In this document: positions 30,799 through 46,955 of the stretch, one piece after another
Layout of the letters: every line of letters begins with the position of its first letter
How positions within the stretch are numbered: position 1 is the first letter of the stretch
Source: a candidate division FCPU426 bacterium
GTDB lineage: Bacteria > Oederibacteriota > Muellerivitia > Muellerivitales > Muellerivitaceae
Direction: 5' to 3'
DNA: 64,000 bases
Assembly (NCBI GenBank): GCA_963738405.1
Contig: CAVTWJ010000001.1
Coordinates: 64,001-128,000, forward strand
Position numbers and translations under genes: made by a program
The notes under the pieces: generated by a model
What the model was told of the DNA's origin: nothing
The model's input: only the letters and a program-made list of their open reading frames with translations
The model's database searches: none

Positions 30799-31134
30799 AT
30801 GGAATATGTCCCTGATCGCGGCGATGTGGTTTGGCTTAACTTCAACCCCCAAGCGGGTAGGGAACAGGCGGGCCACCGCCCTGCCCTGGTTTTATCTCCG
30901 AAGGAATACAACCGAAAAACCGGGCTAGCCGTGATGTGCCCCATGACCACCCAAGTCAAGGGTTACCCCTTTGAGGTGGAAATAACCACCGGCGCCCAGC
31001 GCGGGGTTGTCCTTTCGGACCACTTAAAGAATCTTGATTGGCGGGAACGAAAAGTGACCTTTAAAGGGAAAGCCTCCCAGTCGGTGCTCAAGGAAGTGAC
31101 GGAGAAAATCTCGGCTCTCTTGGCGATTGAGTAA
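30799..31134 (+). CDS. mazF: MazF endoribonuclease toxin
   Basis: YVPDRGDVVWLNFNPQAGREQAGHRPALVLSP, KGYPFEV. Confidence 0.95.
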   Translation: MEYVPDRGDVVWLNFNPQAGREQAGHRPALVLSPKEYNRKTGLAVMCPMTTQVKGYPFEVEITTGAQRGVVLSDHLKNLDWRERKVTFKGKASQSVLKEVTEKISALLAIE

Positions 31135-39545: not shown

Positions 39546-39700
39546 ATTTAAAAAAACTGTTGTCTTTTTGTCCGATTGAAATGTTAAACCTGCGGCCGGC
39601 CTCCAAAAAAATATTTCCGGTTCATTTTCCGTTTTTATTATTTTCTTCTCTGGTATTAACCTACCCCCATCAGTATCAAATTTTATGATGGAGGTGCCCC

Positions 39701-41878
39701 ATGGCATCAGCTGATACGCAGGTTGTTGTACCGCCGGATATCCGCATCATCCCCACCGCCGACTTGTTCGTCCCAGATTGGAACCCACGGAAAGTTATCA
39801 TCCCTTGGGACTTAGCCAACCTGGTGGCCTTTATGAAGGCGGGTGGTAAACCGCCCCGGATCACCGTTTGGAAAGGTCCTCGGGCCGAGGCCACAAGCCA
39901 AGGCCCAGGGTTGAGGGATGCCGGTTCCATAGGGGAACCGGCCAAATGGGCGATCATCGAGGGTCAAATGCGATTGCTGGCCGCTCAACAGGTGGGCTGG
40001 ACCCACATGGAAGCTGAGGTGGTGGATTGCACCCTGGCAGAGGCTAAGAAGCGGGCCTTCACTTCCAACAACCAGAACAAACCCTTCTGGCTTGATACAG
40101 TCCTAGCCATTGAGGCTCTCTATAAAGATCGGAAGGCCAATGGGGGTACCCAGGAGGGCTTGGGGGACGAATTGGGGGTATCCCAGGCCCGGATTAGTTA
40201 CGCACTCACTATTTCAGAGGCTCTTAACCCGGCTTTAAGGGAATTAATTTATAACAGTGTTATAAAATCTGAGGGCGATTGGCAGGTTAAGGAGCGCCCG
40301 GTCCTCCTTCTCACCGCTATAAAAGACCCCAAATCCTTTAATAAAGCCTTAAATGTGCTCATTGACCGCCATTTAACCATGGGTATGGTCGCCAAACTGG
40401 TCAAATGGGTTCAGGATGGCAATGACCCCGATGGGTTTGGCAAGGCCCCCGCCAAAGCAGATTCGAATGCCCCTCAAGTTGACCCTACGCCATCTGTGCC
40501 GCCCCCCCAAGCCCCGGCGGAGGCATCAACCCAAAATCCAAAAGGGGAGCCAGTTAGCCTCAAACAAGCCGGGGCGGAAGCCTTCCAAGAAGTGAAAACC
40601 CATGTCGCCCATACCCGGTCTCAGGTCAAATCGGGTTCCAAACCCACCCCTAGCCAAAGCCTCCAGCTGATCGGCCATGTCGCCCTGGCGATCGGCAAAT
40701 TCCTACTAAAGGCCCTGGTGTGGGCCTGGGACAAGTTTTGGAAGGCGGTCAAAAGCTCCGCACATGCGGTTTGGGGACTTCTAAAGCGGGTAATAGGCAA
40801 AACGGGGGAAACCCTTCTGCAACTGGGCCTGTTGGTCCTTCTTGGTTGGATGGCTTATAGCTACTTCACCCACCATAACTTTGGCCTGGGGTGGCTTAAA
40901 GATCACCTCTTTCCAAACAAACCCCAAAAGGTCGAACAGGCGAATAATCCGCCCCCCATACCGGTAGTCGAAAAACCAGCGGCGAAAGGGCCCGCGCCCC
41001 AAAGGCCAACAACCCACAAACCCACCCTCCAAACTAACTTGCCGCCCCAATCCTATCTCCCCAGCCATGCTTGGCAGGCATCGGACGAGACCATAGAAAC
41101 GCTGGAGGCTGAGATAGCCTCAATCCCCCGGCCTTCCACGATCAAGGATTATCCCGTCACGCCCGATGGCGCCATCAACCCCGACATGGCGGGGCGCCGA
41201 ACCGGTGATATCCAAAACCCCGATAAATATTCAATGAAGGTGGGGAAGGACACCCAAAAGATCCTCACCCTCATGCCCAACATGTCCAGCCTGGTCCTGA
41301 CCTATCAGGGGGACAACCCGCTCGGAGGCCTTTTGGGCGGGCCCAACAAGATGGAATTTTATTGGGAGGAGGTACGGGCCATCCATACCTGCCAAGTGGA
41401 TGTGATTGCCAACCCTCCCCATACCCTCTACCAATGCTCCCTCCTCGTTTCAGGGTTGAAGGTGCCCTTCACCCTCCAATGCGCGACCAAGGAAGATTTG
41501 GCGCACCTGGTTTCGGCGCTTGAATTTTGGATTCGAAACGCGCAAGGAGGGAAGAATGCGCCTGTGGGCGGGTTGCCCTACCTGCATCAAGGCGTGTTGT
41601 TAGGCGAAGGGGACCGGGTGGATGGGGAGTGGGAAGAAAGCCCGGTGATGAGTTCTGGTCTGATCTCGGGCGACCGCCTTTGGGGTGTGGACCAAATCAC
41701 CAGGACCCAGTCCGGCACGAAAGAACTGGAGGATCAACTGCAAAACTTAAATTCGGGAAGCCACATCCTTTTCGCCATCAATCCAAGCGAGTGGGACAAG
41801 TTGGCAGGAAGCTGGAACAAGCGAGGCGTGAAACCCTACAACCCGAAACTGGAGAAGCTCCAATTACTGGTTCAGTAA
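39701..41878 (+). CDS. ParB-like N-terminal domain + HTH + transmembrane segment + distal domains
   Basis: NPRK, IIEGQMRLLAA (GxxRxxA), HTH TQEGLGDELGVSQARISYAL, TM LLQLGLLVLLGWMAYSYF, Pro-rich linkers; GGAGG RBS. Confidence 0.75.
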   Translation: MASADTQVVVPPDIRIIPTADLFVPDWNPRKVIIPWDLANLVAFMKAGGKPPRITVWKGPRAEATSQGPGLRDAGSIGEPAKWAIIEGQMRLLAAQQVGWTHMEAEVVDCTLAEAKKRAFTSNNQNKPFWLDTVLAIEALYKDRKANGGTQEGLGDELGVSQARISYALTISEALNPALRELIYNSVIKSEGDWQVKERPVLLLTAIKDPKSFNKALNVLIDRHLTMGMVAKLVKWVQDGNDPDGFGKAPAKADSNAPQVDPTPSVPPPQAPAEASTQNPKGEPVSLKQAGAEAFQEVKTHVAHTRSQVKSGSKPTPSQSLQLIGHVALAIGKFLLKALVWAWDKFWKAVKSSAHAVWGLLKRVIGKTGETLLQLGLLVLLGWMAYSYFTHHNFGLGWLKDHLFPNKPQKVEQANNPPPIPVVEKPAAKGPAPQRPTTHKPTLQTNLPPQSYLPSHAWQASDETIETLEAEIASIPRPSTIKDYPVTPDGAINPDMAGRRTGDIQNPDKYSMKVGKDTQKILTLMPNMSSLVLTYQGDNPLGGLLGGPNKMEFYWEEVRAIHTCQVDVIANPPHTLYQCSLLVSGLKVPFTLQCATKEDLAHLVSALEFWIRNAQGGKNAPVGGLPYLHQGVLLGEGDRVDGEWEESPVMSSGLISGDRLWGVDQITRTQSGTKELEDQLQNLNSGSHILFAINPSEWDKLAGSWNKRGVKPYNPKLEKLQLLVQ

Positions 41879-41895
41879 TTGGAGTCCTCAAACCG

Positions 41896-41922
41896 TGTAC
41901 TTCGTTTTGTGAACGAAGTACA
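41896..41922. repeat. 11-bp perfect inverted repeat
   Basis: TGTACTTCGTT-TTGTG-AACGAAGTACA; no T tract follows. Confidence 0.7.
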
Positions 41923-41957
41923 GAGATGGGATTATCTGTGCCGTAGCCGTTGTTTCT

Positions 41958-42099
41958 TTGAGGTCGCAAATTGCGACCTCAAGTTGGTCTAAGGTCGCAA
42001 TTTGCGACCTTAAAAATCAGAATGATGAAAGGACCTGATAAACCCAAGAAACGGATCGGGTTTCTGGAGGAAAGCAAAGGTAGTTACCGGGTAAGATAA
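41958..42099 (+). pseudogene. Internally deleted ORF6N-domain gene remnant carrying two palindromes
   Basis: Fragments LRSQIATSSW, LRSQFATLK and C-terminal PDKPKKRIGFLEESKGSYRVR-stop, all typical of ORF6N proteins. Confidence 0.7.
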
Positions 42100-43068: not shown

Positions 43069-43341
43069 ATGGAAAAGTGGAGGGTTAGTCTTTCAACGCA
43101 AGCGGAAGACGAACTTGGAAAAATCTATGAAACAAACCCGGATTTAAGGGCGGATCTATTAGCCCGCCTTAAAATTTTGGAGAACTTTCCGCCTGAGAAA
43201 TGGTTCTTTGTTTATAAGCATCAGGGGTTAGACCTTTTTCGCGCCGAGACAGGGCAGATGATTCGTATTTCAGGTGAAGCCCATTTTGCCACCAAGACCG
43301 TTCAAATTACGCATGTGAAACTGATTCGTAAGCCTTCTTGA
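43069..43341 (+). CDS. RelE/ParE-like putative toxin
   Basis: WRVSLSTQAEDEL N-terminus, 90 aa, C-terminal beta strands, upstream of an antitoxin-like gene. Confidence 0.5.
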   Translation: MEKWRVSLSTQAEDELGKIYETNPDLRADLLARLKILENFPPEKWFFVYKHQGLDLFRAETGQMIRISGEAHFATKTVQITHVKLIRKPS

Positions 43342-43366
43342 CGGTGTAATACGCTGGTAATACAAT
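43338..43366 (+). promoter_or_regulatory. Sigma70 promoter with GTAATAC direct repeats
   Basis: TTGACG-17 nt-TACAAT; GTAATAC occurs twice within it. Confidence 0.7.
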
Positions 43367-43398
43367 TGCCTTAAGGTTTCATAACGGAGGAGGGTGTT

Positions 43399-43719
43399 AT
43401 GCAGGCGATCAACTTTAGGCCCAAAGTAGACCCGGACAAACTTCGACAAATCGCGAAAAAACAACACTATTCCGATTTATCCAGTTTCATCAACGAGGCG
43501 ATTGATGAAAAAATCCGGCAAATCCATGAAAGTCCCAAGGACCACAAACTGGTCAATTCGATCAAGAAGGCCGTATATGAGTATAACGGCTGGGCCTTTT
43601 CCAAGCCCCCTGCCAAGGAAGCGGCTGAGATTAAGCGGAGGGCGGAGGCTATGCGGTCTGGAAAGGCCAAATCCATCCCCTTGGGTGAAGTGATCAAAAA
43701 GTTGTCCGGGAAAAGATAA
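43399..43719 (+). CDS. RHH-type antitoxin-like protein
   Basis: INFRP...LRQIAK...LSSFINEAI (RHH); C-terminal RSGKAKSIPLGEV as in addiction-module antidotes. Confidence 0.6.
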   Translation: MQAINFRPKVDPDKLRQIAKKQHYSDLSSFINEAIDEKIRQIHESPKDHKLVNSIKKAVYEYNGWAFSKPPAKEAAEIKRRAEAMRSGKAKSIPLGEVIKKLSGKR

Positions 43720-46359: not shown

Positions 46360-46386
46360 CGAAACCTGGTTTTGAAGGAGAGGGAA

Positions 46387-46638
46387 ATGCGGGCCCAAAT
46401 TATTCAAATCGGCAATTCCCGGGGCGTACGGATTCCTAAGGCTTTGCTGGAGCAGTGCCAGTTGGAGGATGAAGTGGAGTTGGAGGCCCAACCCGGACAG
46501 TTGGTGGTGCGGCCCTTAGGCGGCCCCCGCCATGGGTGGGCCGTGGCCTTCGAGAAAATGGCCCAGTACGGCGATGACGCGCTTCTGGATGAGGGCGGCC
46601 CGGCGACACAGTGGTCCCGTAAAGAATGGAAATGGTAA
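46387..46638 (+). CDS. mazE: AbrB/MazE-family antitoxin
   Basis: IIQIGNSRGVRIPKALL...PR.GW..AF..M. Confidence 0.9.
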   Translation: MRAQIIQIGNSRGVRIPKALLEQCQLEDEVELEAQPGQLVVRPLGGPRHGWAVAFEKMAQYGDDALLDEGGPATQWSRKEWKW

Positions 46639-46955
46639 TTTCGCGTTTTGAGGTCCATCTCGTCCGCTTGGACCCGACGGAAGGCAGTGAGATCAGAAAA
46701 ACCAGGCCCTGTCTGGTCGTCTCACCGGACGAAATGAACCGATACATCCGCACCGTCATTGTGGCCCCGATGACCACGCAGGGAAGGGATTACCCCACCC
46801 GGGTTCCCGTCGAATTCCAGGGAAAACAGGGGCAGGTGGTACTGGACCAGATCCGCACGGTGGATAAAACCAGGCTGGTGAAAAAGCTTGGCAAGCTGAG
46901 TGGCGCGGCTTCCGAAAAAGTGCTCAGGCTATTGGCTGAAATGTTCGCGCCATAA
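46626..46955 (+). CDS. mazF: PemK/MazF toxin
   Basis: LDPTEGSEIRKTRPCLVVSP, VAPMTT, LDQIRTVDKTRL. Confidence 0.93.
   Translation: MEMVISRFEVHLVRLDPTEGSEIRKTRPCLVVSPDEMNRYIRTVIVAPMTTQGRDYPTRVPVEFQGKQGQVVLDQIRTVDKTRLVKKLGKLSGAASEKVLRLLAEMFAP

Follow-up and report, generated by a model that had tools for sequence, protein, structure and literature searches.

How could a single gene hold its own DNA at the cell envelope, and what would it gain by doing so? The question is raised by one gene in a 64,000-nucleotide stretch of DNA from a candidate division FCPU426 bacterium (contig CAVTWJ010000001.1, positions 64,001 to 128,000; this whole stretch is the window, and its first letter is position 1). 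The gene (39701..41878, on the plus strand, as are its features given below unless stated otherwise) is an uninterrupted open reading frame (ORF) whose 725-amino-acid (aa) product, P0001, is laid out as a ParB-type head, a helix-turn-helix (HTH), amphipathic helices, one predicted transmembrane (TM) segment, a PH domain, and a PDZ domain. An initial annotation, made from the letters alone, had seen in it an integral-membrane ParB-family protein that tethers a DNA site to the envelope or relays an outside signal to a DNA clamp. We favor the reading that P0001 is a self-addressed DNA-membrane tether and a selfish hitchhiker on conjugation, to which we give a probability of roughly 45%. The tethering step by itself appears probable from our analysis; hitchhiking as its purpose is more tentative, and more so for proteins ending in PH and PDZ domains, like P0001, than for relatives that end in a VirB8-like domain.

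A ParB-type head on a predicted membrane protein

The nucleotide-binding N-terminal domain (NTD; aa ∼13 to 128, 39737..40084) is of the ParB/Noc type by profile and by sequence match to the Protein Data Bank (PDB). The N-terminal 246 aa of P0001 matched Noc among the PDB sequences (E value of 4.5e-4), and a profile of the 11 such N-termini of this genome, P0001 included, matched Noc, Spo0J, and ParB across both the NTD and the DNA-binding domain (DBD) with an E value of 2e-24, and KorB and sulfiredoxin weakly. The profile match upholds the ParB/sulfiredoxin-type fold that the initial annotation had supposed, and the motifs that it had named are all present: NPRK of Box I (aa 28 to 31, 39782-39793), EGQMRLLAA of Box II (aa 87 to 95, 39959-39985), the HTH, and the degenerate SNNQN of Box III (aa 122 to 126, 40064-40078). 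The P, G, R, and N residues of Box I and Box II are invariant across the 11 paralogues. Box II of P0001 reads GQMR(LLA) against the canonical GERR(xRA), the first Arg being replaced by Met and GxxR being kept; the canonical Box III is ENxxR. Between Box I and Box II, a dispersed genomic repeat detected with blastn is inserted in frame (aa ∼58 to 83, 39872..39949), with 12 other blastn matches in the genome and three tandem copies in the homologue P0005. On P0001, Pfam made no ParB_N call and returned HTH_3 alone, short of the cut-off (E value of 0.004); among the proteins of the 17 loci of the source genome (G000), ParB_N was above the cut-off in five besides the canonical ParB (L036, L042, L043, L045, L046, and L047 reach it). 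On Box I, Box II, and the profile match, we assign P0001 to the ParB-CTPase fold superfamily, a classification made from sequence. The main text of a preprint on ParB-fold proteins (10.1101/2025.10.10.680097) reports that Box III is often missing in orphan ParBs and that nucleotide preference is not predictable from sequence.

The DBD (40148..40435) has its HTH at aa 150 to 171, with the recognition helix VSQARISY, and is otherwise helical to aa ∼245. Pfam found no ParB_C dimerization domain in P0001; the canonical ParB of the genome has one. As the initial annotation had noted, no parA adjoins the gene: the parA of the genome lies beside the canonical parB on another contig, and the next AAA_31 match is ∼74 kb from the P0001 gene.

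The N-terminus of P0001, which reads MASADTQVVVPP, holds no amphipathic membrane helix of the Noc type, and the membrane elements are found at aa 320 to 390. Trp/Lys-rich amphipathic helices (aa ∼320 to 368, 40658..40804; hydrophobic moment of 0.3 to 0.5 over aa 319 to 368) precede a single predicted TM helix at aa 371 to 390 (40811..40870), a hydrophobic, non-amphipathic segment with eight Lys and Arg residues before it and three after. Its hydrophobicity is marginal, so that it counts as a prediction: the Kyte-Doolittle value is 1.47, and the sum on the biological scale is +2.4, compared with −0.6 to −3.7 for the aligned segment in seven homologues and +2.1 to +2.7 in four rows. Both membrane elements had been proposed initially, and the TM helix of P0001 aligns with the clearer ones of its homologues. 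Beyond it follow a PH-fold domain (aa ∼487 to 618, 41159..41554) and a PDZ domain (aa ∼625 to 725, 41573..41875), both predicted to be extracytoplasmic. An AlphaFold model of aa 454 to 725, built from a 30-row alignment (pLDDT of 91.5, pTM of 0.87), matched PH domains (Z of 8.6, root-mean-square deviation [rmsd] of 3.1, 102 aligned residues) and PDZ domains (Z of 7.9, rmsd of 1.8, 77 aligned residues), in agreement with the PH-like and degenerate PDZ-like patterns first read from the letters; the top 50 structural rows were all PH-like or PDZ, with middling Z values.

This architecture is no chance fusion, a possibility excluded by the full-length homologue P0002 (39% identity over 98%) and by its recurrence in other genomes. 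In a set of 153 PH-PDZ proteins (the best 150 of 491 library matches plus the homologue search set), 59 have more than 300 aa before the PH-PDZ part, and 57 of these carry a ParB-type head (27 including the NTD) and 58 a predicted TM segment. The search for paralogues that the initial annotation had suggested yielded 17 family genes dispersed over the contigs of G000: 11 have the ParB NTD (here called clamp-type) and 6 begin at the HTH domain (clamp-less), while by their tails 6 are PH-PDZ proteins, 8 have a VirB8-like outer domain, and 3 lack a TM segment. Heads and tails combine freely among the family proteins.

Candidate sites inside genes, phased arrays, and gene-less cassettes

Does the head have a target? 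Within the codons for a variable loop in the DBD (IYNSVIK; 40248..40266, no strand assigned), ∼550 bp into the ORF, lies a palindrome with perfect 9-bp arms about one base, which is likely the cognate parS-like site of P0001 and supplies a candidate for the DNA site that was initially supposed to be tethered. It beat 299 of 300 synonymous shuffles. A fixed-window test requiring at least 8 of 10 pairs found such palindromes at one shared nucleotide offset in 15 of 37 clamp-type genes (two fragments were skipped, and subfamilies with offsets of 67 to 118 are missed), compared with 0 of 39 clamp-less genes and 52 of 1,948 control windows. A generic scan allowing one mismatch missed several in-gene sites; a search of the whole loop for at least 8 of 9 pairs found them in 39 of 51 distinct clamp-type genes, the background of such palindromes being 599 positions in the 3.18-Mb genome. 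Duplicated in-gene sites are spaced 42 bp apart.

The exact P0001 site recurs in 5 of 30 other genomes of the taxonomic family, once in each, whereas the reversed control gave 0. Family genes hold three of the five copies, and the recognition helices of these genes (TQARVNY, TQARVSY, and TQAKVSY, against SQARISY of P0001) share with P0001 the pattern GV[ST]QA[RK][IV][SN]YAL across genera, even though one of these genes is only 31% identical overall; the remaining two copies are not in family genes, and one has additional palindromes next to it, among them another member's site. In a comparison of 39 genes, the similarity of the sites follows that of the recognition helix most closely (partial r of 0.19, a value reached by none of 200 permutations) and does not follow that of the NTD. 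Within G000, the P0001 site occurs twice at up to two mismatches, in its own gene and at G000:C2:22562. The palindrome of one paralogue was observed at G000:C23:284793, 285366, and 415262, that is, inside the gene, just 3′ of it, and in a distant cassette.

Arrays of direct repeats take the place of the palindrome in genes that have lost the clamp domain. Of 39 clamp-less genes, 37 have a 7-mer that occurs at least four times within 450 bp upstream; of 39 clamp-type entries, none does (one clamp-less gene was dropped for its short flank, the canonical parB was excluded, and two clamp-type entries are fragments). By the same test, an upstream array is ruled out for P0001. The arrays lie just 5′ of start codons, with spacings of mostly 21 to 22 or 43 bp, conserved and gene-specific cores, and variable spacers. 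Phased direct repeats are typical of iteron-type plasmid centromeres and origins, which the clamp-less paralogues resemble in that repeats spaced by two helical turns precede the cognate gene; unlike those systems, they place a ParB HTH domain on a membrane protein and have no NTPase or Rep gene adjacent. The tree of the 39 clamp-less heads is mostly unresolved (20 of 36 inner branches open).

That all these repeats are repetitive extragenic palindrome-like insertions or RNA hairpins, and the protein a degenerate fusion family, is most improbable. Dispersed hairpin repeats are indeed abundant in the genome and have inserted in frame into family genes, but the in-gene palindromes have a fixed offset, arms that change together, duplicates 42 bp apart, and a one-base center that is unable to form a hairpin loop; moreover, clamp-type and clamp-less genes are strictly split, and the same site goes with the same recognition helix across genera.

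Sites also occur away from family genes. A scan of G000 found 11 arrays: each of the 6 clamp-less genes is preceded by one, and the other 5 have no adjacent family gene (G000:C1:41835, C18:7543, C2:116400, C2:197740, and C23:368978); two of these five match the cores of the arrays before family genes on C12 and C14, and two adjoin palindrome clusters. Clusters of at least three palindromes number nine in G000, against a count of one from three shuffled genomes; family genes adjoin three of the nine, and the six gene-less ones are all intergenic, including the cluster of six different palindromes that holds the second copy of the P0001 site. Clusters of 3 to 9 palindromes were also found in loci of G002, G004, G008, G015, G018, G025, and G027 (13 foreign loci were inspected, 3 of which have fewer than two palindromes or two only). 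The palindromes of these cassettes are flanked as in genes of several subfamilies, and the cassettes combine the sites of many different proteins; for some of these sites the genome apparently has no cognate gene. The cassettes are mosaics of addresses rather than decayed single genes. A short octamer repeat was observed in two clusters, with 26 and 11 copies, as well as within site cassettes (G000:C10:29500-30500, C3:24000-24500, C1:42000, and C2:22500).

These locations bear on whether P0001 might instead be a membrane-spanning one-component regulator with the logic of ToxR or CadC and a KorB-like head, whose PDZ domain would sense an envelope cue while the head represses or activates its own gene and the genes next to cassettes. 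We consider this rather unlikely. A cytoplasmic DNA-binding head, a TM segment, and an outer domain, here PDZ, is the layout of ToxR, VtrA, VtrB, and CadC, the arrays lie directly before start codons, and every gene-less palindrome cluster is intergenic, all of which would suit a regulator. Yet ToxR-type regulators, whose heads are winged-helix domains, act at the promoters of their regulons, whereas the head of P0001 is ParB-type with no OmpR winged-helix Pfam match, and its site lies deep within the ORF with a single further copy in the genome; the neighbors of paralogues are unrelated, the cassettes mix the sites of many proteins, some with no apparent cognate gene, and a VirB8-like outer domain is not known to serve as a sensor. 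The signal relay of the initial annotation still counts among the readings. Regulators of this type capture their loci at the membrane, as PMC9977878 describes.

A dispersed family and its possible link to conjugation

The family is patchy across one uncultured phylum. PH-PDZ proteins were found in 7 of 30 genomes of the same taxonomic family and in 0 of 30 sampled outside it, and the clamp-type head (E value of 1e-40) in 17 of 30 genomes of the taxonomic family and 3 of 68 others of the phylum; of seven clamp-type genes examined from outside the taxonomic family, five have an in-gene palindrome, and two have a TM segment and, by eye, a TPR-like tail. Inside the taxonomic family, copy number ranges from 0 to ∼20, with none found in several genomes that are 97 to 99% complete and one in a 99% complete congener. 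Paralogue loci have unrelated neighbors and no synteny, and several copies are broken; G001 and G004 carry near-identical duplicates at separate loci.

This distribution makes it unlikely that the family is a Noc-like chromosome organizer that benefits the host, with orthogonal anchors pinning dispersed loci in order to position the nucleoid or control division. The best PDB match is indeed Noc, and the contigs carry the 17 genes and the cassettes at scattered places, as an organizer might require; the variable copy number down to zero in nearly complete genomes, the non-syntenic loci, and the broken copies all speak against it, and one protein with many sites would suffice for the task.

What, then, is the unit that spreads? 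Flanks common to paralogues are short (for most pairs, ∼100 to 320 bp upstream and ∼55 to 70 bp downstream), which rules out an extended mobile element common to them. In the G001 orthologue, similarity stops abruptly at an identical 30-bp upstream block (39552..39581), which is probably the left edge or the promoter of a single-gene unit. On the right (41860..41943), a second odd palindrome (41860-41882, 10 of 11 pairs) spans the stop codon; the flank also includes ∼65 bp, hairpin (41897-41921) included, that the P0001 gene shares with two paralogues. Farther 3′, at 41959-42012, lie two 23-bp palindromes 31 bp apart, a repeat that also occurs 5′ of the family genes L092 and L104 and that may resemble one of ORF6N-domain genes. 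Small toxin-antitoxin-like genes stand at 30799-31134, 43069-43719, and 46372-46955, and by eye similar pairs stand beside many paralogues.

Some members depart from the common layout. Short remnants of other outer-domain modules lie just 3′ of PH-PDZ-type genes (G000:C14:238624-238764 and C9:27848-28048), suggesting tail replacement by recombination. L042, L047, and L150 are soluble and carry the ParB NTD-HTH unit twice in tandem, with a degenerate second copy; in L090 (L144:14818-16515) and L106 (L145:15285-17255, minus strand), hydrophobic segments precede the ParB domain, and the tail is unrelated and soluble.

The alternative outer domain, found in 8 of the 17 paralogues in the place that P0001 gives to PH and PDZ, links the family to conjugation. 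It folds at a pLDDT of 91, and it had no sequence match in the PDB; the likeness came from the fold search alone, which returned DotI/IcmL/VirB8/TraM (Foldseek E value of 9e-6; Z of 16.1, rmsd of 2.5, 128 aligned residues), the top 13 structural rows all being of the VirB8/DotI/TraM class. Matches in the ESM Atlas were all under 0.9 and serve as leads only. A profile of this domain matched a gene of ∼199 aa adjoining VirB4 in an integrative and conjugative element (ICE; hhalign probability of 92, E value of 6.7e-7), so that, judged by profile comparison, the domain is homologous to the gene in the VirB8 position of the lineage's integrative elements. The paralogues that carry it differ from VirB8 proteins of type IV secretion systems (T4SSs) in being fused to a DNA-binding head, and they are encoded away from T4SS operons. 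The conserved element, ∼13 kb long, comprises genes for an integrase, an excisionase-like protein, SpoVG, TPR-GGDEF, VirB4, VirB6, the VirB8-like protein, and bPH_2 (loci L125-L128, L141, L143, L147-L149, L151, and L152); no relaxase, coupling protein, or VirB9/10 was recognized in it, and it is a minimal T4SS element. Up to eight ICE VirB8 matches occur per genome. By a hand tally, an ICE VirB8 gene is present in 10 of 13 genomes with at least five family copies compared with 3 of 18 that have fewer copies (a broken one included among the 3), with a nominal Fisher P value of 0.001 that kinship overstates. A complex prediction for ICE VirB8 with the VirB8-like outer domain is evidence neither way (score of 0.01, mark of 0.32, controls not folded). 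Three small G000 elements have a TrwB-like coupling protein and, by eye, a relaxase-like neighbor (C10:107207-109962, C23:87789-90445, and C9:121534-126028).

Homology to VirB8 and co-occurrence with ICEs could also mean defense or exclusion, with VirB8-like or PH-PDZ tails interfering with incoming or resident conjugation machines and the sites serving for autoregulation or as decoys. Toxin-antitoxin-like neighbors are frequent by eye and the specificity is diversifying, as might be expected of a defense system, yet neither a DNA clamp nor gene-specific sites would be needed, and the exchange of clamp for array would go unexplained; we regard this as very unlikely.

How a tether might work and what it would mean

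The favored reading, a self-addressed tether that hitchhikes on conjugation, can be put as a sequence of steps. P0001 would be inserted into the membrane while being translated, which would bring gene and protein together; its head would then probably bind the palindrome of its own gene, as a dimer, by analogy with ParB and Noc, the membrane segment possibly substituting for the missing dimerization domain. CTP-dependent closure of the clamp and sliding on DNA, as in ParB and Noc, would follow, and the closed clamp would keep the locus at the envelope. Each paralogue would have a private address, so that many could coexist without cross talk. Clamp-less variants might gain their grip from 5 to 30 half-sites on one helix face, and cassettes would be passengers that use family proteins in trans. 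Once tethered, a locus would be favored in its own transfer by the lineage's conjugation machinery. We favor a selfish purpose because of the patchy, multicopy, and non-syntenic spread, the private addresses, and the VirB8-derived tails. The initial annotation had included neither the paralogue family and the in-gene site nor the clamp-less forms with their arrays, the cassettes, and the connection to VirB8. The same idea in its fullest form appears somewhat doubtful: one-gene selfish "address labels," each clamping a private code, docking its DNA at the channel of a helper ICE, and biasing transfer, with dozens of orthogonal codes, clamps swapped for arrays, and cassettes that exploit the codes.

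Several observations weigh against the favored reading. With the first Arg of Box II absent and an insertion in its NTD, P0001 may hydrolyze CTP poorly; GQMR in place of GERR, the degenerate Box III, and the in-frame repeat together make CTP gating uncertain. No TM segment is present in 3 of the 17 G000 members, and no strong palindrome in 12 of the 51 clamp-type genes. Because ∼70 bp separate the site from the codons of the recognition helix, their co-variation may reflect linkage, and the genes compared, being kin, are not independent; array motif and protein similarity are only weakly correlated (rho of 0.24), with no peak at the recognition helix. For the single-gene unit, no integrase, transposase, or target duplication was found. 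Co-occurrence with ICEs among kin may reflect a general load of mobile DNA; neither VirB4 nor ICE VirB8 was found in G000 (91% complete), no family gene lies inside the ICE module, 15 ICE and integrative mobilizable element stretches hold no site cluster, and the PH-PDZ part of P0001 has no homologue among the proteins of 11 ICE-containing stretches or in the ICE bPH_2 protein.

Set beside known systems, P0001 shares with Noc the ParB-fold NTD, the HTH domain, and the lack of a ParA partner. Noc has an N-terminal amphipathic helix, whereas the anchor of P0001 is C-terminal to the DBD and is predicted to span the membrane to outer domains; Noc is one protein with many sites, whereas the P0001 family comprises many paralogues with a private site inside the gene of each. 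With ParABS, P0001 has in common the Box I/II motifs, the HTH domain, and a palindromic (here candidate) site, but it has no adjacent parA, no ParB_C, and no intact Box II or Box III, and the genome keeps a separate canonical parAB pair; parS is an even 16-mer, unlike the odd palindrome with its one-base center. P0001 would work like Noc, yet it falls outside both Noc and ParABS. Noc couples specific DNA sites (Noc-binding sites) to the membrane, according to PMC7333895. KorB of IncP plasmids and the orphan ParB-CTPases resemble P0001 in their ParB fold, their link to mobile elements, and their often divergent Box III, but as far as the main text of 10.1101/2025.10.10.680097 goes they are soluble, unlike P0001 with its predicted TM segment, and that text does not mention PDZ, VirB8, or secretion. 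The architecture is undescribed in the full-text literature searched, whose coverage leaves out most subscription journals and to which the supplements of the ParB-fold preprint could add such fusions.

If this reading is true, P0001 would be the first ParB clamp that is integral to the membrane, and it would directly anchor DNA to the envelope at the molecular level. Its family is a natural experiment on the purpose of the CTPase clamp, since loss of the clamp goes with an exchange of one site for 5 to 30 phased ones, and it provides dozens of natural pairs of HTH and site from which ParB specificity might be decoded, as well as, possibly, orthogonal tools for tethering loci. Should the VirB8 link prove functional, it would be an undescribed route by which conjugation is parasitized by single genes and by non-coding cassettes, and if hitchhiking is true, the family would be a new category of system rather than a variant of ParB or Noc.

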